Part shown: piece after piece, positions 13,696 through 45,021 of the stretch
How the letters are laid out: each line of letters begins with the position of its first letter
Position numbering within the stretch: position 1 is the stretch's first letter
NCBI GenBank assembly: GCA_039803205.1
Contig: JBDRYB010000001.1
Coordinates: 139,413 to 203,412 of the forward strand
DNA: 64,000 bases
Direction: 5' to 3'
DNA from: a candidate division WOR-3 bacterium
Lineage (GTDB): Bacteria; Hydrothermota; Hydrothermia; JBDRYB01
Program-made: the position numbers and the translations under genes
Notes under the pieces: generated by a model
What the model was told of the DNA's origin: nothing
Seen by the model: the letters and a program-made list of their open reading frames with translations, nothing else
The model's database searches: none

Positions 13696-13738
13696 GATCC
13701 CGGCCGCGCCAAGAGGTGCGTTTCACGCGACCGGGTCT
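13696..13738 (-). terminator. Intergenic hairpin with GCACCUC loop (hp1)
   Basis: CCCGGUCGCG/CGCGGCCGGG stem with a G-U pair on the minus strand, followed by CUUGUUUC. Confidence 0.6.
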
Positions 13739-13793
13739 GAGAGCTATCTCAGCGGATCAGCGGCATTTTCAGCAGTAAGGCTCCTTGGCATTT

Positions 13794-15362
13794 TCATCTT
13801 ACAACAGCCTTACCCTTAAACCCCTGCCCTCCTGCTATCCAGAAATAGACCCCTTGGCCAAGCGGGAACCAGCTTTTTCCTCGGATCAGTCGCTCAGAAC
13901 ACACGAGCCTGCCATCGCCGGAATAGACCCTGATGTCCGCGTCCTCATGGGATACAAAGAGAAGGCCGCCTGGGAGGGCAGTTGCGGTTATCCAATGTTG
14001 GGAAGGATTGTAGCCTTCCTCAACGCCCTCATAGAGGGCCTCGCAAAAGTTGGCCCTGTGGAGAGGGAGGTCAGAGACCGTCATAGATGCTGTTCTGTCT
14101 GTAACCGTGGGGGTCCAAGGGTTCGTGTTGTCGGTTACGGGAGTTGTGTTGACTGTCGGCACAGCTAAGTCAGGATAGCACGCCGGAACGCAGGCCCCAT
14201 AGCTATGGTTGCCGCTCGGGTCCAGCTTGAGAAGGAGGAGATCCCCTTTGGCCGCTCCCGCGCTCTGGGTCTGGCCAAAGATCGCGTAGCCGCCGTCCGA
14301 GGTTTGGACCACGGAATAGGCTATATCAGAACCAAGGCCTCCGCATGTCCTTGCCCAAACCATGTTCCCTTCAGGGCTGAGCCTAACAACAAAGAAATCG
14401 TCCGAGCCTGTCCCATAACTCGTTGTCTGACCAACGCAAACGAGCCCTCTGTCGGATGTCGGGGCCATTGACCAGAGGAGGTCCTGCCTCCCCCCTACCG
14501 AGCCACCCGCTAGCTTTGCCCAATTTCTCGTCCCATCAGGATTGAGCTTCAAGACGAGGAAATCGTTGTTGCCCGCGCTCGCGAGGGTATAAGCCCCGAC
14601 AAAAACCGTATCTCCAACACATCCTACGGAATAAGCGTAATCCGGAAAACTAGCGACCGTTGACCCAAAAGCCTCTGCCCATTCCCTGGAGCCATCGGAT
14701 CTCATCTTCAACACAAGGATCTCATAAGAACTAACTGAGCCGTAGCTCTTGGTCTCTCCAACGAGCACGAACCCTCCATCGCTGGTCTGAGCTATGGCGC
14801 GCCCTTTTTCGGACCCCGTGCCGCCGAAGGTCTTAGCCCAAACCAAAGACCCATCCGCATTCAGCTTGAGGGCGCAGAAATCCTCAGGGGTGCCAGCCGC
14901 GCTGACTATGAACCCACCGAGAGCGAATCCGCCTTCTGCGGTCCGGATCACCGAGTAGGCTTCCTCCGGTTGGGCCCCTCCGTATGTCTTTGCCCACAGG
15001 AGACCTCCGGAGGAGTTAAGCCTGAGAAGCATGATATCATAGCTGTTGAAGCTCAGGGTGAAACCCGCTATGACAAAACCCCCATCTGATGTCTGAGCTA
15101 TTGAATAACCCCTGTCTCCGCGGTCGTTCACGGTGGGAGAAAATCTCTTCGCCCACAGAACATCCCCGGCCGGGCTCAGCCTTACCGCGATGATGTCCTC
15201 GTATCCCGTGGCCTTTGTGTAACCAGTGAAGGCATACCCACCATCGGATGTCCTGATTAGGGAGCTAGGATAGCCCGTATAATCAGCCGAGTCGCTCCCA
15301 TACATCCAAGCGAAGGTGCTCTGTGAGGTCAAAATCCACGCTAACGCAAAAGCGCTCGTCAT
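13794..15362 (-). CDS. Secreted beta-propeller with W-x-K-T-x-GG repeats, Thr/Pro stalk and short CTD (class B)
   Basis: S-x2-QT-x-DGG(F/Y)..G.T.S.G....D....KL...G...WAKT.GG repeats; ends KGKAVVR. Confidence 0.8.
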   Translation of the reverse strand: MTSAFALAWILTSQSTFAWMYGSDSADYTGYPSSLIRTSDGGYAFTGYTKATGYEDIIAVRLSPAGDVLWAKRFSPTVNDRGDRGYSIAQTSDGGFVIAGFTLSFNSYDIMLLRLNSSGGLLWAKTYGGAQPEEAYSVIRTAEGGFALGGFIVSAAGTPEDFCALKLNADGSLVWAKTFGGTGSEKGRAIAQTSDGGFVLVGETKSYGSVSSYEILVLKMRSDGSREWAEAFGSTVASFPDYAYSVGCVGDTVFVGAYTLASAGNNDFLVLKLNPDGTRNWAKLAGGSVGGRQDLLWSMAPTSDRGLVCVGQTTSYGTGSDDFFVVRLSPEGNMVWARTCGGLGSDIAYSVVQTSDGGYAIFGQTQSAGAAKGDLLLLKLDPSGNHSYGACVPACYPDLAVPTVNTTPVTDNTNPWTPTVTDRTASMTVSDLPLHRANFCEALYEGVEEGYNPSQHWITATALPGGLLFVSHEDADIRVYSGDGRLVCSERLIRGKSWFPLGQGVYFWIAGGQGFKGKAVVR

Positions 15363-15372
15363 GATGACCCCC

Positions 15373-16881
15373 CTATTTTACGATAAACTTGATGGTTTTT
15401 GTCCCTCCGTTGCACCTGAGAACAGCAAGGTATATCCCTATGGATCGCAATCTTAGAATAAAGGTATGGTCCCCTGCCGAGAGGACCCCCTCATAGAGCC
15501 TCTGGACAGGCCTTCCTTCGGCATCATATAGGACGAGCGAAACCCAAGCGCTTTTCGGGAGGAAGAGTTGTATTCCATTTGGTATTGGTTTCATCTCAAA
15601 TCCACCAGACTCCTCCTGAAACCCTATTGGACTGCATCCCTGGGTGTTGCTGGGGTCATCAAGGGCGTATATCATGCCGAGGTTGTATGTTCCAACCAGG
15701 ACCTCAACGCAGTTATCCCCATCTATGTCAGCTGGAACGGGAGAGTGGACATCCCCGTCCGGGTTGGTAACAAAGAGGCGTCTCCTCCAAAGCGTGGTCC
15801 CGTTTTCAGCGTTCAAGCAAACGAGGGTATCCTTCGTATAGTTGGGCACGAGGAACTCAAGCTTCCCATCGTTATCAATGTCAACGAGCGCTCCTGGGGT
15901 GTGAACCTGGCCAGAACAATAACGGTTCCACCTCTCGGTTCCCGTATGATCAATGCAGTAAACATAGAGATCTTGAGAGCCTATGACGATATCAAGCTTG
16001 CCGTTACCATCAACATCCGCAATAGCAGGGGATCCGCTCACGGCGTTCGCTGTCCAGAATGTCCACTTCTGGGTTCCGTTTGAGCCCCTTATGCAGTGGA
16101 GATAACCATCATGGCTCCCTATTATCACCTCCATCTGGCCATCAGCATCAAGGTCAGCAACCGCCGGGGAGGAACGGACCTCTCCGCTCGTGGAATACAC
16201 CCATTTCTGTGCTCCGGTTTGACCCGAAAGGCAATAGACTTTCCCGTCAAAGCTTCCGAAGATAATCTCATGTTTCCCGTCCCCATCGCAGTCAGCAACA
16301 GCTGGCGATGAGGATACATTCGCGCCCGTGAGGAACTCCCACTTTTTCCCTCCATCTGTGCCCCTTAGGCAGTAGAGCCTATCGTCAAGGCTTCCTATTA
16401 CTACCTCAGTCTTGCCATCGCCATCCACATCCGCCAGAGCAGGAGAGGACATCACGGCGTCGCCTGTGGTATATGCCCACTTTTGGCTCCCGTCCGTGCC
16501 GCGGAGACAATAAACATTGTGGTCATAGCTCCCGAAGACGATCTCTATCTTCCCGTCTCCATCAACATCCCCTGCGGCCGGAGAGGATTGGATGAGGTTC
16601 CCGGTCCCAAACTTCCATTCTAAAGCCCCTGTTATCCCATTAAGGCAATAGAGGGTGTCGTTCCAACTGCCCATTACCACCTCGGCAATACCATCGCCAT
16701 CAACATCCCTCACTGAGGCGAACTGCCATTCAAATGGCCCTGATGTCCCGACGAAGAAATACCACTTTATGACAGGCGTTGTTGTCATGGCGCCGCGCAT
16801 GGTCTGGAAGCTCCTATGGCTAGGTTCACCTCCCCACATGGGCCAGATCCCGTGCACCTGGGCTAAGAGCAAAATCATCAT
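15373..16881 (-). CDS. Secreted FG-GAP/PQQ-like beta-propeller with CTD (class A)
   Basis: Same repeats; SD AGGAGG. Confidence 0.85.
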   Translation of the reverse strand: MMILLLAQVHGIWPMWGGEPSHRSFQTMRGAMTTTPVIKWYFFVGTSGPFEWQFASVRDVDGDGIAEVVMGSWNDTLYCLNGITGALEWKFGTGNLIQSSPAAGDVDGDGKIEIVFGSYDHNVYCLRGTDGSQKWAYTTGDAVMSSPALADVDGDGKTEVVIGSLDDRLYCLRGTDGGKKWEFLTGANVSSSPAVADCDGDGKHEIIFGSFDGKVYCLSGQTGAQKWVYSTSGEVRSSPAVADLDADGQMEVIIGSHDGYLHCIRGSNGTQKWTFWTANAVSGSPAIADVDGNGKLDIVIGSQDLYVYCIDHTGTERWNRYCSGQVHTPGALVDIDNDGKLEFLVPNYTKDTLVCLNAENGTTLWRRRLFVTNPDGDVHSPVPADIDGDNCVEVLVGTYNLGMIYALDDPSNTQGCSPIGFQEESGGFEMKPIPNGIQLFLPKSAWVSLVLYDAEGRPVQRLYEGVLSAGDHTFILRLRSIGIYLAVLRCNGGTKTIKFIVK

Positions 16882-16908
16882 AATTAAAGCCTCCTTTTGG
16901 AGATGGAT

Positions 16909-16943
16909 ATTTTAAGAGAAAATCTCCAAAAGATCTCCAAAAA
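16909..16943 (-). promoter_or_regulatory. SARP-type direct-repeat promoter (copy 2)
   Basis: ATCTCCAAAA at 16923 and 16934; -10 TAAAAT on the minus strand. Confidence 0.75.
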
Positions 16944-16960
16944 GACACCTTAAATTATTG

Positions 16961-17012
16961 AAAAAAACAAAGCCCCGGCCGTGTGGGAGGTGCGTTTCAC
17001 GCGACCGGGGCT
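16961..17012 (-). terminator. Intrinsic terminator with GCACCUCC loop (hp2)
   Basis: AGCCCCGG/CCGGGGCU stem followed by UUGUUUUUUU. Confidence 0.8.
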
Positions 17013-17019
17013 ATAAGGG

Positions 17020-18546
17020 TTATCTTATGAGCTTTGCTGTTTTTATTCCTCCTTGATATCTTAGAACACCAAGATAGATGCCGCCAGGCTTTACACCTGG
17101 GATAAATGTGTGCCCCCCTTTGCTCAGAAGCCCATCGTAAAGATCCAAGATCATCTTTCCGCCAACATCGTATAATCTCAAGGATACAATAGCATCGTTG
17201 GAAAGGAAGAGATAAAGCCCATTACCCAAAGCTCGGAACTCAAGCCCTCTCTCAGGCGCACCCTCCATCATATCAACCGGCCCACATCCCTGTGCGTTTC
17301 CGGGATCATCAAGAGCAAATATCCGGTATCCCTGAGCATCGGGATCAAGGGTTCCTACCATAATCTCTATACACCCATCACCGTCTATGTCTCCCGCGAA
17401 TGGGGAATGAACATCATAGGGTAGCGGCTTTTTCCAGAGAAGGGAACCATTCTCTCCGTTCAAACAATAGAGGGTATCCACAGCATTCTTAACATTTGGA
17501 ACCAGAACCTCAAACCGACCGTCACCCTCCACATCCGCGATACACAAGGGCGTATGGATATAGCCTCCCGTGGAATACGACCATTTCTGGGTTCCGTTTG
17601 AGCCTCTTAGACAATAGACCTTCTGATCCCAGCTCCCAACAACAACCTCAATAGCGCCATCGCGGTCCACATCCCCTATAGCGGGCGATGAACGCACGAG
17701 ATAACCGGTTGGGAACAACCATTTCAGTGCTCCGTTTGAACCTGAAAGGCAATAGACCTTATAATCCTCAGAACCAACAATCACCTCCAGGGCTCCGTCA
17801 GCATCAACATCCGCTATTGCTGGAGATGACCATACATAATCCCCTGGCGTAAAAGACCACTTCTCGCTACCATCAGAGCCCCTGAGGCAGTAGATCTTGT
17901 CGCTCCCAACTATGACCTCTTTTGCGCCGTCTCCATCCACATCTGCTGTGGCGGGTGAGGAACGAACATAACTGCTAGTTGCAAAAACCCATTTCTGGGT
18001 TCCATCGGATCCGCGCAGGCAATAGACTTTGCGATCGTCGGAACCAAAAACGACCTCCTTGGCCCCGTCGTTGTCTATGTCTTCCACAACAGGGGAGGAT
18101 TCAACCCAGTTGCCGGTTGGGAAGGCCCACTTCTGCGTCCCGTTTGATCCACGGATGCAATAGAGTTTATTGTCGTTTGAGCCAACTATAACCTCAAGAG
18201 CGCCGTCTCCATCCACATCTTCCACGCAGGGGGATGACTGCACATCGTTTCCTGTGGAAAAAACCCATTTCCCTGTTCCATCGAAGCCCCTGATACAATA
18301 AACCTTGTTGTCCCAGCTCCCCATTATAACCTCTGGTGCTCCGTCGCCATCGCAATCCGCTATGGCCGAACCCTGCCACTCAACCATTCCCTCGCTCGGG
18401 CCGGTCAGGAATCTCCATTTTACGACGGGTTCGGTGCCCATGGCACCGGACATAGATTGAAGGCCCTGATGGCACGGATCGCTCCCCCACATGGGCCATG
18501 AACCATAGTCTGCCCCCATACATACGGCTATGCTAAAATAAAACAT
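17020..18546 (-). CDS. Secreted FG-GAP/PQQ-like beta-propeller with CTD (class A)
   Basis: Same repeats and CTD. Confidence 0.85.
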   Translation of the reverse strand: MFYFSIAVCMGADYGSWPMWGSDPCHQGLQSMSGAMGTEPVVKWRFLTGPSEGMVEWQGSAIADCDGDGAPEVIMGSWDNKVYCIRGFDGTGKWVFSTGNDVQSSPCVEDVDGDGALEVIVGSNDNKLYCIRGSNGTQKWAFPTGNWVESSPVVEDIDNDGAKEVVFGSDDRKVYCLRGSDGTQKWVFATSSYVRSSPATADVDGDGAKEVIVGSDKIYCLRGSDGSEKWSFTPGDYVWSSPAIADVDADGALEVIVGSEDYKVYCLSGSNGALKWLFPTGYLVRSSPAIGDVDRDGAIEVVVGSWDQKVYCLRGSNGTQKWSYSTGGYIHTPLCIADVEGDGRFEVLVPNVKNAVDTLYCLNGENGSLLWKKPLPYDVHSPFAGDIDGDGCIEIMVGTLDPDAQGYRIFALDDPGNAQGCGPVDMMEGAPERGLEFRALGNGLYLFLSNDAIVSLRLYDVGGKMILDLYDGLLSKGGHTFIPGVKPGGIYLGVLRYQGGIKTAKLIR

Positions 18547-18561
18547 AACAGAAGCTTCGTT

Positions 18562-20112
18562 TCATCTGATTATCTTTATCGTCCTTATGTTTCCTTCTGC
18601 CTTCATTACCGCTAGATAGACTCCGCGGGAACTGATTTCGGGAAGAAACACATGGTCCCCGGATGCCATCTCTCCATCCCAGAGTATCTGAGTCAGCCTG
18701 CCTGAGGAGTCGTAGAGCTTCAAGGAGACCTGACCGGATGATGGCAAGTGAAGATGGATGGCGGGGCCCATTGGAATGAAGAGAACATCCTCGGGCGAGC
18801 CCTCCTCAGCTGTAACGACCCCGCAGTTTGATGAGCCTCCCACATCATCAAGCGCGTATACCTTGGAATCCCCGCAACCGACGATTATTTCAATACACCC
18901 ATCGTTGTCTATGTCCGCTGGAATAGGGGATTGCACATTCGGCCCAAGGGCCTTTTTCCAGAGAACAGAGCCGTTTTCGCCGTTCAAGCAGAAGAGGGTA
19001 TCCTCAGGCGCGCCTGAAACCCTCGTTCCAGCCAGAACCTCAAGCTTCCCATCCTTATCTATGTCTGCGAGGGAGACAGGGGTTGATACAGACGCGAGCA
19101 TTGGTGAGAGGTAGTTGCTCCACTTTATTGCCCCCGTCGCGCCGTTCAGGCAATACACATATCCGTTCAGGCTCCCCACGCAAACCTCCATAGCACCGTC
19201 CCCGTCGCAATCGCCGACTGCGGGAGACGATTGAACATCCCCGGATAGCTTCTGGCTCCACTTCTTTGTTCCGTCAGTTCCCCTCAGACAGAATATTGAA
19301 TCGCAATCAGAACCCACTATCACCTCTATGTCAGTTCCGCCGTCAACATTGAAGATCACAGGGGATGACTCCACCCACGAGGAGGGCGAGCTGCTCGTGA
19401 GATACTCCCATTTTTTCGTCCCGTCCGTTCCCCTTAGGCAATAGACCTTGTAGTCGTTTGCGCCCCAGACCACTTCCATCTTCCCATCGCCGTCCACATC
19501 TCCAACAGCCGGAGACGAGCGGGACTGATATATGATCACGAATTCCCATTCTACCGCGCCCGTAGCACCATTCAGCGCGAAGCACTTGGGACAGCCTGAG
19601 CATGTTGTCATGCTGGTAAAAACAATCTCCTTTTGGCCGTCACCATCCACATCGGCAATCGCTGGCCCAGACCATATTATCCCCTCGCTCGGGCCCAGAT
19701 AATTGAACCATTCTCTGGCCCCAGTAGCGCCGTTCAGACAGAATACCGTGTCCCCATCATTCCCAAAGACAACCTCTATCGCGCCATCTCCGTCCACATC
19801 CCCGACGGCAGGAGAGCTCCTTATCTTGCTCCTCGTGGAATAGCTCCACTTCTGAGCCCCGGTAATTCCGTTTATGCAATAGATGTGACAATCCATGGAT
19901 CCCACTATAACCTCTGGGAGTCCGTTCCCATCGCAATCAGCGACCGCTGAGAACTGCCATTTCACTGTGTCCCCTGTGGTGAACTGCCATTTCACATTGG
20001 GAGCCGTGCTCATCGCGCCCTTCATGGTCTGGAGAGCCTGGTGAGCTGGCTCGCCTCCCCACATGGGCCATGAACCGTAAACAGCACCTATGCATATGAC
20101 AAAGCTAAACAT
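18562..20112 (-). CDS. Secreted FG-GAP/PQQ-like beta-propeller with CTD (class A)
   Basis: Same repeats; SD AAAGGAGG. Confidence 0.85.
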   Translation of the reverse strand: MFSFVICIGAVYGSWPMWGGEPAHQALQTMKGAMSTAPNVKWQFTTGDTVKWQFSAVADCDGNGLPEVIVGSMDCHIYCINGITGAQKWSYSTRSKIRSSPAVGDVDGDGAIEVVFGNDGDTVFCLNGATGAREWFNYLGPSEGIIWSGPAIADVDGDGQKEIVFTSMTTCSGCPKCFALNGATGAVEWEFVIIYQSRSSPAVGDVDGDGKMEVVWGANDYKVYCLRGTDGTKKWEYLTSSSPSSWVESSPVIFNVDGGTDIEVIVGSDCDSIFCLRGTDGTKKWSQKLSGDVQSSPAVGDCDGDGAMEVCVGSLNGYVYCLNGATGAIKWSNYLSPMLASVSTPVSLADIDKDGKLEVLAGTRVSGAPEDTLFCLNGENGSVLWKKALGPNVQSPIPADIDNDGCIEIIVGCGDSKVYALDDVGGSSNCGVVTAEEGSPEDVLFIPMGPAIHLHLPSSGQVSLKLYDSSGRLTQILWDGEMASGDHVFLPEISSRGVYLAVMKAEGNIRTIKIIR

Positions 20113-20142
20113 GATCTAAACCTCCTTTCGTTCACGGCCTTT

Positions 20143-20176
20143 ATCTTAGAGAAAAATCTCCAAAAGATCTCCAAAA
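20143..20176 (-). promoter_or_regulatory. SARP-type direct-repeat promoter (copy 1)
   Basis: ATCTCCAAAA at 20156 and 20167; -10 TAAGAT 8 bp after the proximal TTGGAGA. Confidence 0.75.
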
Positions 20177-20254
20177 ACCACACCAAACCAAGGTGAAACA
20201 AGGGGAAAATATGGGTGGTTGACCATGGTTTTTCATGGGCAATAAAATATTCGG

Positions 20255-21838
20255 GTGAGGGATGTTGAGCTTTTTGAACGCGGACTTGAACTCTTCAACG
20301 CCAACAGAATAGCGGAATTCCAGGAATTCTTGCGGCAGATGAGGGAAGAGAACCCTCCGGTAGCATCCCTTTTGGAGATCCACCATGCCCTTCTTAGCCA
20401 CAATCCGGCAATAGTTCTCAGGAAGGCCAAGAGGATGTTCTCAACCTTCTCGGGGAAACCAGAACTAGCGGTAAGATTCTACATGAGGATGGGGGTGGCG
20501 CAAAAGATGATCGGGGAAATAGGCCTCTCAGACAGTTACTTTGCCAGGGCAAAGGAGCTCGCTGAGAAGATTGGGGACAGCCCAGCGGTAGAACACGCGA
20601 GGGTGGAGCTCCTTTACAACAGGTTCATGAAACAGGAATACGATTCCCTCTATAAGGACCTCGCTGGGCTAGACCCATCCGACCCCTTGTTTGATCATCG
20701 GCACATCAAGTTCATAATGGCCATGATCCTCGTGGTGCAAGGTGAGATAGGGAAGGCAAAAAGGCTCCTGGATTTGTTGGTGAGGTCTGATAGGGTGGGG
20801 GAATACATGAGGATTAGTATCCTTGAGATCAGGGGCATCATATCTAGGCTGGAAGGGAACCTTAATGAAGCTGTTGAGCTTTATGAGGAATCAGCAGAGG
20901 GTTACCTCTCTTTGGGATCGGCTTATGCCGCATTTCCTTGTGCGAAAGCGCTCCAGATAACCCGTCTCGCCAACATCAAACCTCCTCCTGGTGCCCTAAT
21001 AAAAAGATGTCTGAGAACGGCCAACAAAGGAGGCTGGGGGGAACAGGCCGCGGGGAAAGAGATTGAAGCACTGCTAACCGAGGATGAAGGCGAGGCCGCG
21101 CTCCGGCTATTTGAGGCCGCCAAAGGCTATTACAGGGTATATCAGAACATAGAGTCGGTCATGGCCGGGCTTCTGGCTAGCTACCTGGCCTGGAAAGTGA
21201 ATCATCCGGTCTTCATGGATGCCATGAGGTTCCTGGGGCCCATGCTCCCGCTTTATCCTGGGTTGAAAAAAGACCCAATAATAGGGGATTTCATGACCAG
21301 GGCAGAGGCTTTTCTTAGAGGAGAACAGAGGAATACCAAAAGGGGAATTAGGGCTTGGCTCATAGGCGACCTGAGAGTGGAGGTGAACGGTTCAGAGCTC
21401 TCCGTAACCAGATGGGGGAGCAAGCAAGCCATGATGGCGTTCATATACCTTCTGCTCTCCCCGAGGCACAGGATCCCCCAGGATCACCTGTTTTACCTTC
21501 TGTGGCCTAAAAAACCGTATACTTCAGAAACAAGAAGCCTGCTTTATCGCGTGATGAGCATCCTGAGAAAGAATCTCAGCGGCTCATTCCTGGTCAAGAG
21601 GGGGGATTTCTATCAGCTTGAGGATGTCTGGACTGATCTTGAAGAGATTGAGGACCTCATCCGAAAGGCCGAGGGGGCTGGTGATCCCCAGAAGACCAAA
21701 GAGCTCCTCTTTCTGGCCGGGGAGCTGGCAAAGGGGGAACTCTTGCCAGAATTTCCCTATGATCCCTATATTGAGGAATACAGGGGTTATTACGAGGGCC
21801 TCAAAAGGAGGATAGCCCGTGGGTCTAGTAAACCGTGA
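20255..21838 (+). CDS. Transcriptional regulator: N-terminal TPR-like region, C-terminal SARP-type wHTH + BTAD-like domain
   Basis: LIGDLRVEVNG..W.S..A...IYLLL...IP.D.L...LWP..L...LRK.L..FYQL..VWTD..E..GELLPE; leaderless promoter TTGACC-18-TAAAAT. Confidence 0.8.
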   Translation: MRDVELFERGLELFNANRIAEFQEFLRQMREENPPVASLLEIHHALLSHNPAIVLRKAKRMFSTFSGKPELAVRFYMRMGVAQKMIGEIGLSDSYFARAKELAEKIGDSPAVEHARVELLYNRFMKQEYDSLYKDLAGLDPSDPLFDHRHIKFIMAMILVVQGEIGKAKRLLDLLVRSDRVGEYMRISILEIRGIISRLEGNLNEAVELYEESAEGYLSLGSAYAAFPCAKALQITRLANIKPPPGALIKRCLRTANKGGWGEQAAGKEIEALLTEDEGEAALRLFEAAKGYYRVYQNIESVMAGLLASYLAWKVNHPVFMDAMRFLGPMLPLYPGLKKDPIIGDFMTRAEAFLRGEQRNTKRGIRAWLIGDLRVEVNGSELSVTRWGSKQAMMAFIYLLLSPRHRIPQDHLFYLLWPKKPYTSETRSLLYRVMSILRKNLSGSFLVKRGDFYQLEDVWTDLEEIEDLIRKAEGAGDPQKTKELLFLAGELAKGELLPEFPYDPYIEEYRGYYEGLKRRIARGSSKP

Positions 21839-23651
21839 ACTTCCTGGTAAGGCAACCCCACCGTGAGCACATCCTCAGGAAATAGACCCCCTGGCTCAGG
21901 CTGGAAACCGGAACCCTGAGCTCATGCCTGCCAGCGCTGGCATAACCCGAAAGGACATCGTAAATCAGCCTCCCTGAGACATCATATATCCTCAGGGTAA
22001 TCTCACCATCTTCCGGAATTGAGTATGAAACTGGAAGGTCCCCGCGGACCGGGTTGAGGGTAACCCTCAGAGATAGCAAGCCCTCTTCCGGAGGGCTCTC
22101 GGCAAGCTCCGTGTAGCGTATCTTCTTGAGGACCCACTCCCCTGGGTCAACCAAAAGGGTCTCTGGCCGGAACTGCACGAGCCAGCTGAAGCGCTCGGCC
22201 CGCTCGTTGACCCAGACCGTATCCCGGAATGTATCCGGCGCGTGAACCATCATTATCTCAACTGGCATGATGAAAACGGGCGCGTTTTGCTGAACCTGAT
22301 TGAGATATAGGTTCACCTCGTATTTGCCCCCTAGATCACGAGCGAACCAGTTGTAATAAAACTCAGGATAGCCTGCTTCGTAGATCCACTCCCGAAAGAA
22401 CCAGTCCAAGGATGAGCCATAAACAGCCTCGGCCTCAGCCTGGAAGTCCGGAATGGTTGCTGTGCCGCCGCCGTAGGCGTTCCGGTAGTTCTTCAGGGTG
22501 GTGAAGAACCCCTGATCCCCCATGACCCATCTGAGCATGTGAAGCACCCACGCGCCCTTCTTGTAGACCGTGTAGCCCCACATGTATTCGGCGGGGGGAT
22601 CGTAAATCGGGAATCTGGCCTGCGCGTCCTCGGAGAAATAAAGGTTCTTGAAGGACCTCATGACGCTGTCGCGCTTCGGAACCCCCCCAATGTGCTCAGC
22701 GTAAAGGGCCTCGCAGTATGAGGCAAAACCCTCGTTCAACCATACATGCGGCCAGTCCTGGCAGGTTACCCAATCCCCCCACCACTGGTGGCTGAGCTCG
22801 TGCGCGTATGTCAGGATATGCCGGCCATCTCCGGTGATCCAGTATGATCCCAAAGCAACCATGGTCTGGTGCTCAAGCGCGAACCCCCCTCCCCAGAGGT
22901 TGCTCTGCGCGTATCCGAACTTCTCGCTCCTGAAAGGGTAATCCCCGAAAACCGAGGAGAAGTAGTCCAGCATGTCAGGAACACTCTGAACATCCGCTCG
23001 CATCTTGTCCTCAAACAGGTTAAACGGGTAATACCACAGCGGCATGCCTTGCCAGGAGTCCGTGAACTTGGCATACTTATCCGAGGCTGAAACAGCAACG
23101 AGGTAATTGGCAATGGGGTAATGGACTGACCAGTAGAAGGTCTTCCAGTCCCCTTGATCATCCACCGAATCAAGGGTCCCATTCGCGGCCAGATCAAATC
23201 CCTTCGGGACCGTGTATGCGAAACGAGCGCTATCCGCCTTGTCTCCGTTGTGGTCGTAACAGGGATACCACTGGTGAGCGTCCTTGACGCCATCAGGGGA
23301 GAGACAGGCCGAGAAGGCGCCCCAATAGTTGAAATAAAGCCCAGCGGTTGGATGGCCGTGGTAAAATACCTCAAGGGTAAAATCCTGCGGAACAGGGCCT
23401 CGGACCCAGACGGTATCATCCCTCCTGGTAAAATCAGCCAACAAGCCGTTGAGCCTGATGCTGTCTATGTTTAGCGCTGAGCCGAGGTGAAAGTCCACAG
23501 AATCAAGGGCTGAAATAGCGCGGCCTTTTATTTCGCCCATACCGAAGATGGTGTCCGGAACGGGGTCCAATGTCAAATAGATCCCGTAAAATCCCACATC
23601 GTAGGAATGGGGAAAAACCTGCGAGAGAAAGGCTAAAAACAATCCGGTCAT
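21825..23651 (-). CDS. Secreted M1-family aminopeptidase with CTD
   Basis: FALEHQT, HELSHQWWG, WLNEGFA, YKKGA; CTD NP..YDVSGRL..GVYFLR. Confidence 0.9.
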   Translation of the reverse strand: MTGLFLAFLSQVFPHSYDVGFYGIYLTLDPVPDTIFGMGEIKGRAISALDSVDFHLGSALNIDSIRLNGLLADFTRRDDTVWVRGPVPQDFTLEVFYHGHPTAGLYFNYWGAFSACLSPDGVKDAHQWYPCYDHNGDKADSARFAYTVPKGFDLAANGTLDSVDDQGDWKTFYWSVHYPIANYLVAVSASDKYAKFTDSWQGMPLWYYPFNLFEDKMRADVQSVPDMLDYFSSVFGDYPFRSEKFGYAQSNLWGGGFALEHQTMVALGSYWITGDGRHILTYAHELSHQWWGDWVTCQDWPHVWLNEGFASYCEALYAEHIGGVPKRDSVMRSFKNLYFSEDAQARFPIYDPPAEYMWGYTVYKKGAWVLHMLRWVMGDQGFFTTLKNYRNAYGGGTATIPDFQAEAEAVYGSSLDWFFREWIYEAGYPEFYYNWFARDLGGKYEVNLYLNQVQQNAPVFIMPVEIMMVHAPDTFRDTVWVNERAERFSWLVQFRPETLLVDPGEWVLKKIRYTELAESPPEEGLLSLRVTLNPVRGDLPVSYSIPEDGEITLRIYDVSGRLIYDVLSGYASAGRHELRVPVSSLSQGVYFLRMCSRWGCLTRKFTVY

Positions 23652-23731
23652 GGCGATATTCTAAGCTAAAGAGGAGCTCTTCTGCAAGGAGTTTGACCCT
23701 GACTGGGGCAAAACCCTATACTATCCCCGCC

Positions 23732-24355: not shown

Positions 24356-24397
24356 CCGGTTTCAATACCTTTTTAGCCGTCGCGAAAAGGATTGAAC

Positions 24398-25537: not shown

Positions 25538-25653
25538 CTCCAGAACTCCTTCTCTTAGAGTTCATAATTATAGGAGAGGGTAAGACCGAGAAACAACTTG
25601 TATCCTTTGACACAAGACTACTATAATATGTCCAAGCCTATAGGAGGTGTATT

Positions 25654-26766: not shown

Positions 26767-26822
26767 TTGAAATCCGGGACCGGATCGCCTCATAGTATCC
26801 GACCAAATGTAGGAGGATTGCT

Positions 26823-27794: not shown

Positions 27795-27866
27795 GGACGA
27801 GGCCGGCCTTAGGCTCATGGCTGAGGCTGGTTATGCCTGCAGCTGAACAGGTGAGAAGACCCAATC

Positions 27867-32657: not shown

Positions 32658-32659
32658 CT

Positions 32660-34213: not shown

Positions 34214-34295
34214 AACCTCTTATGGGGAGCCATACGGGAAGGCCAGAGAGTTATGCATTTGCCCCTTTCCCCGGAGGCTCCAACTCGTTGGTTTT

Positions 34296-34452
34296 CGGGC
34301 AAGGTTTTCCGGCTTCCGGCTCAGAGGCCCTCGCCTTCCCAGGAGAGCGGCTCTCACCTACAACTCCCAGTGGCATTCTGAGGGCCCCTATCTGCCAGTC
34401 ACGGCTGCGGGGACAGCCCGGGATTCTCACCCGGTTCCCTTGAACCCAGGAG
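34296..34452 (-). ncRNA. Cobalamin riboswitch
   Basis: Minus strand AAGGGAACCGGGTGAGAATCCCGGGCTGTCCCCGCAGCCGTGA ... GCCACTGGG ... GGGAAGGC ... AAGCCGGAAAACCT (B12 box). Confidence 0.9.
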
Positions 34453-34524
34453 GAAAATTATAGACCATAACCCCGCAGGGATGCAAGTTGAATTCGCGGC
34501 CTCTTTTGCCTTAACCTTATAGCT

Positions 34525-36366: not shown

Positions 36367-36375
36367 GCCCTTACC

Positions 36376-37752: not shown

Positions 37753-37871
37753 ACGGAAATTATAGGCTTAGGGTGAATCTGAATTCAAAAACCTAAACAA
37801 AAAGCCCTTGGACCAAGGGAACCGTAGCTCTAAGGATGCAATCCCAGCCCCCCAGCCATTATACTCTCAGG

Positions 37872-38315
37872 GTGGTAATTAGGCCAGCCAGGCCGGAGGA
37901 TATTGAGCCTGTCCTCGCGATAGAAAAGGCCTCTTTCCCCGAATCATCCTGGAGCAAAAACGCCTTCCTTTCCGAGCTCGTGAAAACGGGGACCCGGTTC
38001 TGGGTCGCTGATGATGGCGAGGTCGTCGGCTACATCGTTGTCTGGGACATGGTTGATTACCTTTATATTGCCAACATCGCCGTCCGGGAGGACAAGAGGG
38101 GCAGGGGCATAGGGAAGTCCCTCATGCGCGCCTGTTTGGATGAGGCGATTGAGACCCGCAGAAAGGCAATACTCCTGGATGTCAGGGTTTCAAACCAGAG
38201 GGCGAGGAGATTTTACGAGGGCCTCGGTTTCGTGGAGATGAGGCTGAATCCCAGGTTTTACGGCACTGAGGACGGGATAACATACATCCTGATGCTGGAG
38301 GGCCGGGGCCATTGA
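37872..38315 (+). CDS. rimI: Ribosomal-protein-alanine N-acetyltransferase
   Basis: IE..SF...W, NIAV, RGRGIG, LDVRVSN..A..FY..GF, R/FY..EDG; GTG start 37872. Confidence 0.85.
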   Translation: MVIRPARPEDIEPVLAIEKASFPESSWSKNAFLSELVKTGTRFWVADDGEVVGYIVVWDMVDYLYIANIAVREDKRGRGIGKSLMRACLDEAIETRRKAILLDVRVSNQRARRFYEGLGFVEMRLNPRFYGTEDGITYILMLEGRGH

Positions 38316-38327
38316 TTAAAACGACCC

Positions 38328-38352
38328 TTAGTGGGGCTGGAAGCCCCGCTAA
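38328..38352 (+). terminator. Hairpin after rimI
   Basis: TTAGTGGGGCT/AGCCCCGCTAA stem, no U-tract. Confidence 0.35.
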
Positions 38353-38375
38353 CGGAAAGCGTATAATTTTCAGCC

Positions 38376-39518: not shown

Positions 39519-39778
39519 GCCCGAGCTCGCTCAAGCCCAACTTTGACACCAGAACCCTGATCTTTGGGGCTTTGCCTCTGAGTTCCGTATAAAATCAGGT
39601 TTTTTTATTTTCTGAGGACAAGCTCATAGCCACCCTTTCAGGGTTCAGCGGGAAGGTCAGGTTTTCAAGGCATACGGGAGATGGAACTCCGGAAGGGCTT
39701 AGGCCCAAAATCAGCTAATGGGTTCCGAAAAAACGGGTGTTGCTATTACCTACTGATTAGCTATATAATATAAAAGCT

Positions 39779-41749
39779 ATGCTTTTGGCTTTTCTGCTAT
39801 CAACAACCCTCCACGGCATGATCGCGGACGCGGAGACGGGTAACCCTCTTGCTGGTGCCGCGGTTGTCGTCGAGGGCAAGGGTGTGGGCACATACTCTGA
39901 TGAAAGTGGCCATTTTATGCTCACGAACGCGCCCGATCCCCCAATAACTCTCCTCATAAGCATGCTTGGATACCAAACCGAGAGGATTGAGCTCTTGGAA
40001 ATTCCCTCTCACCTCTCAGTTGGTTTGAAACCAGCCGCAATAGGCTCGGAGGAGATAGAAATAATCTCCTCACCAACCCTCCACGATATGAGTCAGTCTC
40101 CTGTGCCAACGCAGAAGCTTGATGCCATACGACTTCAATCAGCAAACCAGACCTCCCTCCAGGATGCGCTAAGGCTCTTGCCCGGCATAACGGTATCAGG
40201 GGATCAGTCATCTGGGGCCGCGGATGGTTTCAGCCCTCGTCTCCAAGGGCTCCTTGCCCACCACACCTTAGTTCTCCTCGATGGCAAGCGCTTGTTCTGC
40301 CACGATGGGGCTGGCTCCAACATCTCCTCGGTTCCCCTACTACTGGTTGAGAGGATTGAAGTGATAGAAGGTGCTTCCTGTGCCATTCACGGCTCAGACG
40401 CTCTGGGAGGGATAATCAACATCATAACCAAAAAACCCTCTCCTGAGCCCATGCATGCTTTCAGGGCCAATTATGGCACATATGGGAACCTGGAGGTGGG
40501 CGCCGCTTTCGGCGGGCCCGGCCCAGCTGGTTCTGCCTACATTCTGAGCATGGGCCAAAAGGCCTACGAAGGCAGAAGAGAGTCCGATGCCTACGAGAGG
40601 CTGAGCGCCTCCTGGAAGTCCGCGTGGAAGGGCTTCAGGCTGAACGGGGATTACAGCGAGGGGACATTGGGGCGTGAGAATCCGGAGCGTTTCTGGAACA
40701 CAATAGGTGAGGCGGGGTTCACTTGGATGGCTGGGTTCTCCCACAACGAGTTAAGCGCCTACGCTAACCACTATGGGAGGGCATATGGCTCATCTGATGC
40801 GACAAACCTCGTTGCGGAGATAAAAGGGGAATCTCACCTTGGGGTCTCATACCATAACCTGATGATGGGCGCGGTCCTCAGGCAGAACCAGTTTGAGCGC
40901 ACAGGCCTTTCTTTGTCCTCTGAGTCATTCTATGGATTTTACTTTGAGGACGACGCGAGGCCGCGAGGATGGCTCAATCTCGATCTGGCCGGCAGGCTCG
41001 ACCGTTATCCAATCGGTGGTTTCCAGCTGACACCTAAGGCCGGTTTCCAACTGGAGCCGAACCGGAGCCTCGTAATAAAGGCTTATTTCGGCAGAGGATT
41101 CAGGGCCCCCAGCCTCCAGGATAGATACGAGGAAAATGTCCCCGCCGGCAGTTATTACAGACAGGGGAATCCGAACCTCGTTCCAGAAATAGCCACGAGC
41201 TACTCATCCGGAATTAAGTTCTCGCCCATCAGCTTCATGAGCTTGAGCGTTTCAGGTTTTTACAACAAAGTAAGCAACATAATGGTCCCTCTTCCTACCG
41301 GAGATTCCCTGGACGGATTGCCTGTCCTCACCCTGCAAAACATCCCCAAGGCCCATTCATGGGGAGTATCACTGAATCTGAGGCTGGAAAGGGAGCCGGC
41401 CTGGGCTGACCTCTCCTATACTTATCTGAACACCAGGGACGACAGCACGGGGATGCCCCTTGGATATGAGCCAAAACACACCCTCTCTGGCCAGCTCACC
41501 TTTGAACAGAGAGGTATTGGCGCGAGCCTCACTGGCGAGTTGGTGAAGGATAGGCTTTATGTCGGAGGGCTAAGGCTTCCGGATTATTTCCTGCTCAACC
41601 TGAACCTTTTCGCGAGGCCACTGAACGGCGTTCAGGTCAACTTTGGGGTTCAGAACCTCCTTGATGAGAAGAACCTCACCTCTGCGGATGGCAGTGCCTC
41701 CCTGTGGGCAGGAAGGGCCTTTGGCGGAGGCATGAATGTGAGGTTCTAG
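39779..41749 (+). CDS. TonB-dependent receptor with N-terminal carboxypeptidase-regulatory-like domain
   Basis: DAETGNPLAGA, LVLLDG, ERIEVIEG..GSDALGGIINIITK, FRAPS, GNPNLVPE, terminal F. Confidence 0.9.
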   Translation: MLLAFLLSTTLHGMIADAETGNPLAGAAVVVEGKGVGTYSDESGHFMLTNAPDPPITLLISMLGYQTERIELLEIPSHLSVGLKPAAIGSEEIEIISSPTLHDMSQSPVPTQKLDAIRLQSANQTSLQDALRLLPGITVSGDQSSGAADGFSPRLQGLLAHHTLVLLDGKRLFCHDGAGSNISSVPLLLVERIEVIEGASCAIHGSDALGGIINIITKKPSPEPMHAFRANYGTYGNLEVGAAFGGPGPAGSAYILSMGQKAYEGRRESDAYERLSASWKSAWKGFRLNGDYSEGTLGRENPERFWNTIGEAGFTWMAGFSHNELSAYANHYGRAYGSSDATNLVAEIKGESHLGVSYHNLMMGAVLRQNQFERTGLSLSSESFYGFYFEDDARPRGWLNLDLAGRLDRYPIGGFQLTPKAGFQLEPNRSLVIKAYFGRGFRAPSLQDRYEENVPAGSYYRQGNPNLVPEIATSYSSGIKFSPISFMSLSVSGFYNKVSNIMVPLPTGDSLDGLPVLTLQNIPKAHSWGVSLNLRLEREPAWADLSYTYLNTRDDSTGMPLGYEPKHTLSGQLTFEQRGIGASLTGELVKDRLYVGGLRLPDYFLLNLNLFARPLNGVQVNFGVQNLLDEKNLTSADGSASLWAGRAFGGGMNVRF

Positions 41750-41781
41750 TGGCACTCAAACGGGTCGGCCGATGCGGAGAT

Positions 41782-43308
41782 CTACCTGATTATCCTTGTG
41801 GTCCTTATCCGTCCCTGATACCTGAGCATGGCGAGACAGACGCCCTTTACACTTGGATTTGGAATGAAAGTGTGGCCGCCCCGGCTCAGGAGGCCCTCAC
41901 ATAGCCTCTGAACAAGCCTCCCTGAGGCATCGTAGAGATCCAAGGAGACCTCTCCGTCCTTCGGGAGGAAAAGGTATAGCCCCTTGCCCATTGGCCTGAG
42001 AATGAGAGTCTCTTCACCAAAGAGATCCTCTCTCTGGTAAAGCGAACCGCAACCACTCGCATTGTAGGGGTCATCTATGGCGAATATCCGGTAGCCCTGA
42101 GGATCGGGATCAAAAGTCCCTGTTATTATTTCTACACAACCGTCGCCGTCTATGTCTCCGGCAAAGGGCGAGTGAACATCACGAGCAAGAGCTATCCTCC
42201 AGGCTATTGAACCGTCTTCAGCGTTAATACAATAAAGGGTCTCAGTGCTAGCTTGAGAGGCTAAGAACTCTATGTTTCCGTCTCCATCTATATCTCCCGA
42301 AACTCCGGGCAAATGCACTGCTCCAGGAAGCGGCGTAGACCACTTCTGCGTCCCGTCTGAGCCTCTGAGACAATAGATATTGCAGTCAAAACTACCTATA
42401 ATCACCTCCATAGCACCGTCCTGGTCACAATCAACGAGGACAGGAGAACTATACACATCATTTCCCGTAGTGAAACTCCACTTTTGCGCGCCATCCGATC
42501 CGCTCAGGCAATAGAGTTTATCATCCCTGCTACCCACCAACACTTCTATTAATCCATCTCCATCACAGTCACCGAGAGTGGGTGAGCTATACACATTGCC
42601 CCCTGTAGTAAAAGACCATTTTAGTGTCCCGTTTGAGCCCCGAATGCAGTAGATCTTGTAGTCAATACTACCCACCACAACCTCTTTTGCGCCGTCCCCA
42701 TCAATATCCGCAATTGCTGGAGAGCTAGTTAAAACTATAGTGGGTTCCCCCGAGAAGCTCCATTTTTGGGTTCCGTTTGAGGCGCGAAGGCAATAAATGT
42801 AGCCATTGTTAACAGCCGCTATAACCTCTTTTTGTCCATCTCCGTCAACATCTACAATTGCGGGAGCACTTTCTATTCCGCTAGGAGCCGTAAATTTCCA
42901 TCTCTGAGTTCCATCTGACCCGGCTAAGCAGTAGAGGTTGTGATCATTTGAACCTATAACTACTTCGAGATTTCCATCGTTATCAACATCGCCCACCGCT
43001 GATGATGCATCAAAAATGCCTCCTGCCGTGAAGGCCCACTTCGGGGTTCCATCTGAGCCCCCGATACAATAGACCTTCCCGTCATGACTGCCCATGAGCA
43101 CCTCAGGGTTTCCATCGTTATCAACATCAGCTATAGCTGAGAACTGCCACTCAACCGCGTTTCCCGTTGCGAAGCGCCACTTTATTACCGGGGTTGTTAT
43201 GGCGCCTTTCATGAGCTGGACAGAGACATGCGTGGGATCTCCGCCCCACATGGGCCAGGTTCCATAGACCTGGCTTAGGATCACCATGATATATCCTGCT
43301 GCAGTCAT
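41782..43308 (-). CDS. Secreted FG-GAP/PQQ-like beta-propeller with CTD (class A)
   Basis: Same repeats as 10527-20112; start ATG 43308 with GGAGGTG. Confidence 0.85.
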   Translation of the reverse strand: MTAAGYIMVILSQVYGTWPMWGGDPTHVSVQLMKGAITTPVIKWRFATGNAVEWQFSAIADVDNDGNPEVLMGSHDGKVYCIGGSDGTPKWAFTAGGIFDASSAVGDVDNDGNLEVVIGSNDHNLYCLAGSDGTQRWKFTAPSGIESAPAIVDVDGDGQKEVIAAVNNGYIYCLRASNGTQKWSFSGEPTIVLTSSPAIADIDGDGAKEVVVGSIDYKIYCIRGSNGTLKWSFTTGGNVYSSPTLGDCDGDGLIEVLVGSRDDKLYCLSGSDGAQKWSFTTGNDVYSSPVLVDCDQDGAMEVIIGSFDCNIYCLRGSDGTQKWSTPLPGAVHLPGVSGDIDGDGNIEFLASQASTETLYCINAEDGSIAWRIALARDVHSPFAGDIDGDGCVEIITGTFDPDPQGYRIFAIDDPYNASGCGSLYQREDLFGEETLILRPMGKGLYLFLPKDGEVSLDLYDASGRLVQRLCEGLLSRGGHTFIPNPSVKGVCLAMLRYQGRIRTTRIIR

Positions 43309-43342
43309 CTTAACACCTCCGTGTGGTTTTTTGTTCCCAAGG

Positions 43343-43398
43343 AAAAATAAGGCCAGCCGGAGCAGAAACGGGAGGTGCAAGGATTCTCCGGCTGGCCT
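43343..43398 (-). terminator. Hairpin with GCACCUCC loop (hp3)
   Basis: 13-bp stem AGGCCAGCCGGAG/CUCCGGCUGGCCU followed by UAUUUUU. Confidence 0.75.
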
Positions 43399-43402
43399 GG
43401 TC

Positions 43403-44923
43403 TCATTTTACAACCGCCTTCCCTTTTTGGTTTCCTGCTTTCCAAAAGTAGACCCCTGGCTCAAGGGTCAGCTTGTTCTCTCCCTTTTGGAGTCGCCTCG
43501 CGTAAACAACCCTTCCATCGGAGCTGTATATGTTTATTATTGTCTCCTCGTTCAAGAAAAACAGGGCGCCGCCGGGCGTAGGAGAATAAACTATCTCTGG
43601 CCTTGAAGGGTTGGAGACCTCCTCCGGGTTTAACGGAAGGCATACATCAGTTACGCTTAAGGTAGGAGTTGTTGAGGCTATACTGGGAGATGATATGCTT
43701 GGGGAACAATCCGTGCCAACATTCAGAGAGGATATGTTGGGGACTATATCCATAACGGTGGGCTCGCACTCCTGAACGCATCCAGGGTAGCTTCCATCAG
43801 AATTTACCATAAGAACAAGGAGATCATACCACCCTGCACCGAAGCTATCAGTGTATCCAGCAATCACATAGTTTCCGTCCGGGGTTTGAACTACAGAATG
43901 CGCTTCATCAAAGCCTAGGCCGCCGAACTTCCTGGCCCACTCTAAAGAACCATCGGGGGTTATCCTTAAAAGAAGGAAACTCCGGCCGCCGATGCCGGAG
44001 CTTTCTGTGTATCCAGCAACCGCATAGGTTCCGTCAGCGTTTTGGATTATGGACCAAGCTCCATCATAATGAGTGCCACCGTATGTCTTGGCCCAGGCCA
44101 GAGAACCATCAGAATTGAGCTTGAGGATGAGGAGATCGTATTCGCCCGCCCCAAAACTCAGAGTAGCACCAACGACCATAAACCCCTCATCCACCGTCTG
44201 AATTATGGAATATCCCTCGTCAGAAGCCGGCCCTCCTAACATCTTGCCCCACTCAAGAGAGCCATCGGGGTTGAGCTTGAGCACGAGAACATCATAATCG
44301 CCGCCAGCATAGCCATTTCCTCGGCCTGCTACTGCGTAACCGCCGTCCGCAGTCTGAATTATGGAGAAAGCTTCATCGGTGCGCGTTATCTCCCCGTATG
44401 TCTTGGCCCAGGCCAGAGAACCATCAGAGCTCAGCTTTACAACGAGGAAATCTATCATAAAGGAGTAGCTATCCGTCCATCCGGCGAGCGCATAGCCTCC
44501 GTCTTGGGTTTGGACTATAGAATAAGCATACTCGCTTAATTGGTCTCCCAATGTCTTGGCCCAGATGAGCGAACCGCTAGAGTTAACTTTGAGAATGAGG
44601 ACATCGTTATTTCCCGCGCCGAAACTCTCCGTAGAACCAACTACCACATATCCTCCGTCTGAGACCTGTTTCACGCAGAACCCCCCTTCATAGTTGTTGC
44701 CCCCAAATGTTCTGGCCCAGACCGGAGAACCGTCGGTGTTCACCTTAAATAGCAAGAGATCGTAATCACCCGCGCCAAAGCTCTTCGTAGCCCCTACTAT
44801 AGCAAACCCCCCATCTGTTGTCTGCGCAACAGACCAAGATTCGTCCCAAGAGATACCGCCATATGTCTTAGCCCAAAGGCTTTGTCCCATCAAGGTGGTC
44901 GCTATGATATATGCGCTTATCAT
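43403..44923 (-). CDS. Secreted W-x-K-T-x-GG beta-propeller with stalk and short CTD (class B)
   Basis: Repeats as in 13794; ends KGKAVVK. Confidence 0.8.
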   Translation of the reverse strand: MISAYIIATTLMGQSLWAKTYGGISWDESWSVAQTTDGGFAIVGATKSFGAGDYDLLLFKVNTDGSPVWARTFGGNNYEGGFCVKQVSDGGYVVVGSTESFGAGNNDVLILKVNSSGSLIWAKTLGDQLSEYAYSIVQTQDGGYALAGWTDSYSFMIDFLVVKLSSDGSLAWAKTYGEITRTDEAFSIIQTADGGYAVAGRGNGYAGGDYDVLVLKLNPDGSLEWGKMLGGPASDEGYSIIQTVDEGFMVVGATLSFGAGEYDLLILKLNSDGSLAWAKTYGGTHYDGAWSIIQNADGTYAVAGYTESSGIGGRSFLLLRITPDGSLEWARKFGGLGFDEAHSVVQTPDGNYVIAGYTDSFGAGWYDLLVLMVNSDGSYPGCVQECEPTVMDIVPNISSLNVGTDCSPSISSPSIASTTPTLSVTDVCLPLNPEEVSNPSRPEIVYSPTPGGALFFLNEETIINIYSSDGRVVYARRLQKGENKLTLEPGVYFWKAGNQKGKAVVK

Positions 44924-44970
44924 GAGTTAATCGCTCCTTTTACGACAAAAGATGTGGCTTTCTGAGGAGA

Positions 44971-45021
44971 TGGGCTGGCTCCGGGTATTCCGGGAGGTGC
45001 GAGGGTTCCAGAGCCAGCCCA
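44971..45021 (-). other. Hairpin with GCACCUCC loop (hp4), no U-tract
   Basis: UGGGCUGGCUC/GAGCCAGCCCA stem, extended by a U-G pair on the minus strand. Confidence 0.7.

Follow-up and report, generated by a model that had tools for sequence, protein, structure and literature searches.

The stretch of DNA analyzed here (64,000 nucleotides, called the window below) comes from a metagenome-assembled genome (MAG) of candidate division WOR-3 and carries four RNA hairpins whose loops are complementary to Shine-Dalgarno (SD) sequences. The four copies, hp1 to hp4, constitute a hairpin family that is real and selected. They are supported as mRNA-sense hairpins located at gene 3' ends, at internal junctions of two arrays of beta-propeller genes. 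We tentatively favor the reading that they are terminator or stabilizer hairpins, at 3' ends and between cistrons, whose loop may pair with the strong GGAGG(UG) ribosome-binding sites (RBSs) of the array mRNAs. To our knowledge, no member of the WOR-3 phylum has been cultured, and no regulatory RNAs have been described from it.

Position and structure of the hairpins

The original prediction, which was made from the letters of the window, had placed four GC-rich hairpins just 3' of array genes, and their coordinates and sequences were recovered unchanged. All four are given here on the minus strand. hp1 (13699..13735) has a 10-bp G+C stem with one U-G pair and a 17-nt loop containing GCACCUCU (13712-13719). 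It starts 58 nt past the stop codon of gene 13794-15362, and its tail, AUCCCUUGUUUC, is weakly U-rich. hp2 (16971..17012) has a 14-pair stem, with one C-A mismatch and one U-G pair, and a 12-nt loop containing GCACCUCC (16986-16993); it starts 7 nt past the stop codon of gene 17020-18546, with the U-tract UUUGUUUUUUU downstream. The stem of hp3 (43350..43398) is a perfect 13-bp helix closing a 23-nt loop, in which GCACCUCC occupies positions 43371-43378. This hairpin starts 4 nt past the stop codon of gene 43403-44923, and the U-tract UAUUUUU follows it. hp4 (44970..45022) combines a 15-pair stem, including two G-U pairs, with a 23-nt loop containing GCACCUCC at 44993-45000; it starts 5 nt past the stop codon of gene 45028-46530, and the sequence after it, CUCCUCAGAAAG, is not a U-tract.

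Each of these stems of 10 to 15 pairs, directly 3' of its gene on the mRNA strand, contains 9 to 11 G-C pairs. Folding of 81-nt segments of the minus strand gave -33.5, -28.8, -31.1 and -38.3 kcal/mol for hp1, hp2, hp3 and hp4, respectively, with z-scores from -2.6 to -4.9. When 47 gene ends were compared, all four ranked among the most stable post-stop hairpins. The U-G pairs of hp1, hp2 and hp4 correspond to A-C mismatches on the plus strand, on which the stability of hp1 is the same as that of shuffled sequence (z = -0.02), and the minus-strand fold is the better one for three of the four hairpins. The minus (mRNA-sense) strand is therefore favored, on the basis of the G-U pairs, three of the four fold energies, the orientation of the genes and the U-rich tails of hp2 and hp3. 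The array junctions that have no hairpin are 10-35 nt long, with the next SD directly after the stop codon.

The spacer between hp1 and its upstream gene (13736-13793, minus strand) contains GAAAAUGCC as a direct repeat and, immediately 5' of hp1, a second small hairpin (CUGAGAUAGCUCUCAG). Canonical short-loop terminators are rare in the window; outside the four hairpins, structures resembling them were clear only at 54505-54532 and 38325-38355, both on the plus strand.

Loop motif

Every loop holds GCACCUC(C/U), within the 5' loop consensus AA..(C/U)GCACCUC(C/U), and the motif is predicted to be single-stranded, with a mean unpaired probability of 0.82-0.98. The window contains five RGAGGTGC sites (at 295, 13712, 16986, 43371 and 44993), compared with 5.58 expected by chance. 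Their placement is not chance-like: four of the five are the hairpin loops, and the remaining one is the RBS of gene 307-1527. In a census of hairpins in the window (10 or more pairs, 7 or more of them G-C, and loops of 8-26 nt; n = 56), CACCTC was present in the loops of four, exactly hp1 to hp4. GCACCTC was the sole 7-mer occurring in four loops of this census, and words outside the motif occurred in two loops at most.

For comparison, a search of genome contigs with a 7-sequence alignment provided at least 80 foreign loci (1,174,039 bases) from Bathyarchaeia, Ignavibacteria, Bacteroidota, Saccharibacteria and others; none of the matches listed was labeled WOR-3. The window and 80 of these loci together contain 253 CACCTCY sites, six of which lie in hairpin loops, namely, the four of the window and two weak ones in foreign loci L080 and L034. 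CACCTC was absent from the strong long-loop hairpins of the 80 foreign loci (0/186), and, among the loci listed, the delta-60 genes of other phyla are without the hairpin element. In coding regions, CACCTCC occurs 2 times in sense versus 13 times in antisense orientation, and ACCTCC 19 versus 38 times; CACCTCC is scarce on the coding sense strand yet retained in the hairpin loops.

Relationship and selection among the copies

hp1 and hp2 are near-duplicates, with 22 identical bases over the 5' arm and loop. Their stems are unlike those of hp3 and hp4, in agreement with the original prediction, and the stems of hp3 and hp4 also differ from one another. hp3 and hp4 are located at the homologous stop codons of tandem paralogues and align without gaps. 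Among their 13 shared pairs, 7 are changed on both sides and 6 are unchanged; no pair has a one-sided change, and pairing is retained in all 26 cells. When the pairing partner was slid by 1-3 columns as a control, pairing was at most 57.7% and double changes numbered at most 1; in a second control, 8 of 500 shuffles equaled the observed values. Identity is 6/13 in each arm, and all 7 arm differences are compensated.

In the loops of hp3 and hp4, 15 of the first 17 bases and none of the last 6 (0/6) are identical. The earlier claim that the loop is conserved beyond the stems was thus borne out by the four copies. The adjacent coding ends of the two genes (last 120 nt) are identical at 76 of 120 positions and at 20 of 40 third codon positions. 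At 50% divergence, the binomial probability of seeing no more than two differences in 17 bases is about 0.001, for a stretch of 17 that was chosen post hoc. Both the helix and the loop look selected because of the compensatory changes and because the loop identity is 15/17 compared with 20/40 at third positions. Judged from this alignment, the helix is shown to be kept by compensatory substitution, and the 5' part of the loop to stay constant while the stems, the 3' half of the loop and the synonymous sites diverged. In hp1 and hp2, GCACCUC is carried on a stem unrelated to the stems of hp3 and hp4.

In a four-sequence MAFFT alignment, the 3' arms of hp1 and hp2 fell in other columns than those of hp3 and hp4, and only hp3 and hp4 were therefore used to build a covariance model. 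This model recovers hp2 (17.3 bits, E 0.024) and scores hp1 weakly (7.7 bits, E 8.8). It gave no further credible match in the window and no match in the 1,174,039 foreign bases at E up to 1.

A hairpin at 61978-62031, inside coding sequence (gene 61536-63371), shares the outer stem of hp4 (GGGCUGGC/GCCAGCCC) and has a 32-nt loop with ACCUCC on the sense (minus) strand, which may be due to chance. Its scores with the model are weak (14 bits, E 0.18, on the plus strand; 9.2 bits, E 3.5, on the minus strand).

Gene arrays and transcription units

Array 1 (9017..20112, minus strand) comprises seven genes of about 500 aa that encode FG-GAP and delta-60/DUF5122 beta-propellers with the sorting tail of the type IX secretion system (T9SS). 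Array 2 (41782..49552, minus strand) comprises five genes of about 500 aa, of which four are delta-60/DUF5122 and one is FG-GAP. The T9SS C-terminal sorting domain was detected in genes 9017-10510 and 21825-23651. The best protein matches bear NCBI names of candidate division WOR-3 MAGs and include delta-60 proteins of other WOR-3 genomes.

The exact direct repeat TTGGAGAT-N3-TTGGAGAT, with an 11-bp period, is present in three copies in array 1 (0.09 expected by chance). A -35/-10-like promoter overlaps each copy, and a strong SD follows. On the minus strand, one copy lies before the first gene of the array (20156..20174) and has no hairpin upstream, the second (16922..16940) lies about 30 nt downstream of hp2, and the third (13647..13665) lies about 33 nt downstream of hp1, at the start of the next transcription unit. 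Array 1 is divided into three units on the basis of these three promoters; hp2 lies at the end of the first unit and hp1 at that of the second, and the two hairpins separate the units. Since the promoter of the first gene is without a hairpin, the hairpin belongs to the 3' end of the upstream gene and not to the promoter module. The direct repeat before the first gene of array 2, GTTCTAG-N4-GTTCTAG (49609..49626, minus strand), also has an 11-bp period. It has no other exact copy, and hp4 (after the third gene) and hp3 (after the fourth) therefore appear to be internal to one operon. A role of the loop as an extra site for a regulator that binds the direct repeats was ruled out, as the loop has the opposite orientation and holds a single copy.

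A divergent TPR gene of about 525 aa lies beside each array (20255-21838 and 49682-51253, both on the plus strand), and the two are paralogues with 42% identity. The C-terminal part of the gene at 20255-21838 gives a very weak, far sub-threshold match (E 0.003) to the DNA-binding end of the SARP regulator AfsR. The TPR genes and the promoter repeats, which share the 11-bp period and differ in repeat between the arrays, may represent an array-specific activator and its operator.

Potential pairing partners of the loop

The loop motif is complementary to the strongest SDs of the window and forms perfect 7- to 8-nt duplexes with the SDs at 295, 25643 and 43314. As the original prediction had it, the loop exactly complements GGAGGTGC at 295-302, the sole full 8-nt complement in the window, and matches GGAGGTG at 25643-25649 and 43314-43320. 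The site at 295..302 (plus strand) is the SD (GGAGGUGC) of gene 307-1527, which probably encodes a T9SS cargo protein, judging from a sorting-tail match that lies below the curated cutoff. The site at 43314..43320 (minus strand, GGAGGUG) is the SD of gene 41782-43308. It is located 50 nt downstream of the hp3 loop motif and is the best cis partner, with 7 Watson-Crick pairs to the hp3 loop. When each loop was ranked against 47 start regions with RNAduplex, the SD of gene 307 came first to third for all four loops, alongside a doubtful start at 3308.

A crude survey of start sites found a strong SD at 15 of 46 gene starts, 9 of which are in the arrays; strong SDs also precede the probable T9SS cargo genes 307 and 26823. 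The strong GGAGG(UG) sites of the window are thus mainly located before array genes and other T9SS cargo genes. At 9 of the 46 starts, which rest on crude start calls, a TATAAT-like box lies 6-10 nt upstream of the start codon, and an SD is absent. These starts are 20255, 23651(-), 37752(-), 38376, 39779, 49682 and 55928 and, less clearly, 30189(-) and 54576. The position of the box suggests that the nine genes may be expressed from leaderless mRNAs.

Positions 1-250, directly upstream of gene 307-1527, are occupied by a 109-bp tandem repeat, with two full copies and a partial third that runs past the window start. Each copy holds a 32-nt hairpin on the minus strand (43-74 and 152-183). The repeat is not a CRISPR array, because the repeat units are identical.

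Proposed function

According to the favored reading, the hairpins would close or partition the transcripts of the two T9SS-cargo beta-propeller arrays. The G+C stem would serve as an intrinsic terminator, an attenuator or a block to 3' exonucleases. A terminator-type stem is suggested by the U-tracts of hp2 and hp3, by the weak one of hp1 and by the location of hp1 and hp2 immediately upstream of the next promoter. hp4, which has no U-tract, would be only a stabilizer or processing hairpin inside the operon. The exposed CACCUCC-type loop would mimic the anti-SD of 16S rRNA and pair with strong GGAGG(UG) sites. The likeliest partners would be on the same transcript, either at the next cistron, in read-through or polycistronic RNA, or at the 5' SD of the unit. 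Such pairing would lower translation and stability and thereby set the relative output along the array. Action in cis is somewhat more likely than action in trans.

If the loop pairs with RBSs, these terminator-like hairpins would contain a compact regulatory module that is reused between paralogous secreted-protein genes, and an anti-SD-like word, usually selected against in mRNAs, would be made useful by its display on a stable stem. The pairing kept by compensatory change and the constant, SD-complementary loop suggest an uncatalogued mode by which gene arrays tune their expression. With its length of about 50 nt and its single 8-nt loop motif, the hairpin would be a simple, testable handle on the grading of expression along T9SS cargo arrays, and the candidate RNA family could be traced through WOR-3 metagenomes by a covariance model.

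Several observations weigh against this reading. In the RNAduplex ranking of the 47 start regions, neither the adjacent cistron nor the first SD of a hairpin's own unit was preferred; the downstream neighbor ranked 4th for hp3, 8th for hp1 and beyond the top 10 for hp2 and hp4. By reading, the SD of the hp4 neighbor (AAGGAGCG) pairs with the loop over about 4 bp only, and the first SD of the own unit over 5-6 bp, which is no better than unrelated SDs. All four loops have the same G-C 5' of ACCUCC, which generic SD pairing does not account for, and the strand asymmetry of CCUCC words is partly due to the repeat codons of the array genes. The anti-SD label itself is taken from the general bacterial consensus, which we assume to hold for this organism; the 3' end of its 16S rRNA lies outside the window. 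With regard to structure, intrinsic terminators do not typically have loops of 12-23 nt, hp4 is without a U-tract, the tail of hp1 is weak, and hp2 is better folded on the plus strand (-33.3 versus -28.8 kcal/mol). The preference of the original prediction for the minus strand accordingly stood for the G-U pairs, for three of the four folds and for the U-tracts of hp2 and hp3, was weak for the tail of hp1 and did not stand for the fold of hp2 or for the tail of hp4. The last gene of each array, which adjoins a convergent gene, has no such hairpin. Finally, the four copies all come from one genome and represent only two or three independent lineages. Taken as a whole, the original interpretation is partly supported: mRNA-sense 3'-end hairpins with a loop predicted to be single-stranded and SD-complementary were found, but duplex ranking pointed to no specific target.

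This bacterium appears to express many housekeeping genes from leaderless mRNAs and to use strong SDs mainly for T9SS cargo. A wider form of the favored reading, which is quite improbable, holds that against this background the hairpins are a dedicated anti-SD system acting in cis and in trans. Stable hairpins of cargo mRNAs would then titrate or mask, with their mimic of the 16S tail, the GGAGGUG-type sites of the cargo regulon. If this is true, total cargo translation would be fed back on the abundance of cargo transcripts, apart from the rest of the proteome.

Comparison with known RNA systems

In icaR of Staphylococcus aureus and hbs of Bacillus subtilis, a 3' pyrimidine-rich anti-SD motif can reportedly pair with the SD of its own transcript and control translation and decay. 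The WOR-3 hairpins are similar in that an anti-SD motif lies in the 3' region of an mRNA and is able to pair with an SD of the same transcript. They differ in that the motif is in the loop of a stop-proximal G+C hairpin, which is repeated at four multigene-array junctions, and in that the complementarity of the loop to the SDs of its own unit is 5-7 bp, with pairing that is here only predicted. For S. aureus, an interaction between the 3' and 5' untranslated regions of the icaR mRNA is described in PMC3868564, and the corresponding hbs interaction is the subject of PMC5737220. In B. subtilis, anti-SD-like 8-mers can reach RBSs hundreds of nucleotides away, their pairing promotes decay and blocks initiation, and long-range words of this kind are generally depleted and deleterious, according to PMC12697547. 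Compared with the words described there, the WOR-3 word is conserved and structurally displayed and is therefore implied to be used.

RNAIII, RsaE and CcsR/cuckoo are separate small RNA (sRNA) genes with several C-rich loops that target SDs; RsaE is the subject of PMC6158497. The likeness to RNAIII and CcsR/cuckoo drawn in the original prediction holds for the mechanism, as unpaired C/U-rich hairpin loops complementary to GGAGG-type RBSs are found in both cases. It does not extend to the architecture. Each WOR-3 element is one hairpin, located in the 3' region of an mRNA or between cistrons, with a longer, different motif (GCACCUCC), and by sequence it has one loop rather than several and no separate promoter. 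Rfam includes the CcsR family, and a search of the whole window with Rfam 15 at the gathering threshold gave a cobalamin riboswitch as the sole match and none at the hairpins. At E up to 10, the regions 13590-13800 (hp1) and 43300-45040 (hp3 and hp4) gave only chance-level matches to small nucleolar, long noncoding and micro-RNAs. A literature search found no description of the motif, which leaves its absence unproven, and nothing that joins WOR-3 with Shine-Dalgarno.

Alternative explanations

The alternative that survives best, although it is unlikely, is that the accumulated terminator fragments are trans-acting sRNAs derived from 3' ends, with a loop that would repress SD-led mRNAs elsewhere, such as those of gene 307-1527 and further T9SS cargo genes, in the manner of the C-rich loops of Gram-positive sRNAs. 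This was the main idea of the original prediction. The loop is open and conserved, and its sole perfect 8-nt complement is at this unlinked gene, apparently T9SS cargo, which also ranked first to third. The conserved G-C beside ACCUCC fits GGAGGUGC better than the SDs of the neighbors. The terminator-like U-tails of hp2 and hp3 would leave a stable 3' fragment, but hp4 has no terminator tail, and neither a promoter nor a processing signal for a separate small RNA was seen in the sequence. Moreover, each element has one loop and no seed region upstream of the hairpin, and an 8-nt seed would fit any strong SD.

It is distinctly unlikely that the loop is a recognition site at which a sequence resembling the 16S 3' end is presented to an RNA-binding protein or endonuclease, perhaps one whose usual substrate is the 16S 3' tail, which would process or stabilize the array transcripts without SD pairing. 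Such a role would agree with the conserved block AAYCCUYGCACCUCCCG, which exceeds the anti-SD core and is the stretch with 15/17 identity between hp3 and hp4, with the invariant G-C and with the failure to find a specific SD partner. However, the four loops have only GCACCUC in common, the window encodes no candidate protein, and this proposal is purely inferential.

Little credence is given to the possibility that the hairpins are ordinary terminators or 3' stabilizers, with a functionless loop likeness that is a remnant of tandem duplication or a coincidence. Intrinsic terminators have loops of about 3-8 nt. The four hairpins resemble Rho-independent terminators and protective intra-operon structures in having a G+C stem past the stop codon, in the U-tracts of hp2 and hp3 and in their location at unit ends. 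Duplication is also plain for hp1 and hp2, which share flanks in addition to the 22 identical bases, and hp3 and hp4 occupy homologous positions after homologous stop codons. Nevertheless, the loops (17, 12, 23 and 23 nt) are far longer than a terminator needs and have conserved sequence. The 17-nt block differs at 2 positions, whereas the stems, the 3' half of the loop and the synonymous sites are about 50% diverged, and the same 7-mer is found on the unrelated stem of hp1 and hp2. A consensus terminator scan listed none of the four whole hairpins and, of hp1, only a sub-helix of 7 pairs within the 3' arm (13714-13698). Structures inside operons set differential decay, according to PMC5927463, and the WOR-3 hairpins have a similar potential to set differential mRNA stability within operons.

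A DNA-level element, that is, a recombination or mobile-repeat site (REP/MITE-like or an attC-like cassette boundary), is very improbable. It would account for inverted repeats around a conserved asymmetric center and for four sites that are equally oriented at the 3' ends of same-strand paralogous genes. Unlike REP and MITE palindromes, which are scattered in many copies with conserved stem sequence through unrelated intergenic regions, the element in the window is limited to four copies, all inside the two arrays, with none beyond them within 64 kb and none in the 80 foreign loci. The stem sequences differ and are not conserved, and their mismatches are G-U-compatible on the mRNA strand. Integron attC sites carry an R''/R' core consensus at the stem base and lie near an integrase; by reading, no such cores are seen at the stem bases here, and the ORFs scanned showed no domain of a recombinase, integrase or transposase.

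A plus-strand RNA with an SD-like or GGA loop, acting as a protein sponge or antisense transcript, is barely credible: the loops read GGGAGGUGC on the plus strand and hp2 folds better there, but hp1 is no more stable than shuffled sequence and is without GGA, A-C mismatches arise, no plus-strand start codon is located at SD distance (by reading), and a scan of 9000-21000 and 41000-50500 found no promoter-like plus-strand site at the four hairpins. CsrA-type GGA loops and small plus-strand ORFs were ruled out on the same grounds, namely, the instability of hp1 on that strand, its lack of GGA and the missing start codon at SD distance.

Other features of the window

The remainder of the window is ordinary chromosome, encoding MetRS, peptidases and a TonB receptor in addition to the cobalamin riboswitch. 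A scan for tRNA and tmRNA genes found none. The riboswitch (34281-34464, minus strand) scored 83.5 bits and, with gene 32660-34213 (no Pfam match) downstream of it, occupies the upstream region of that gene.

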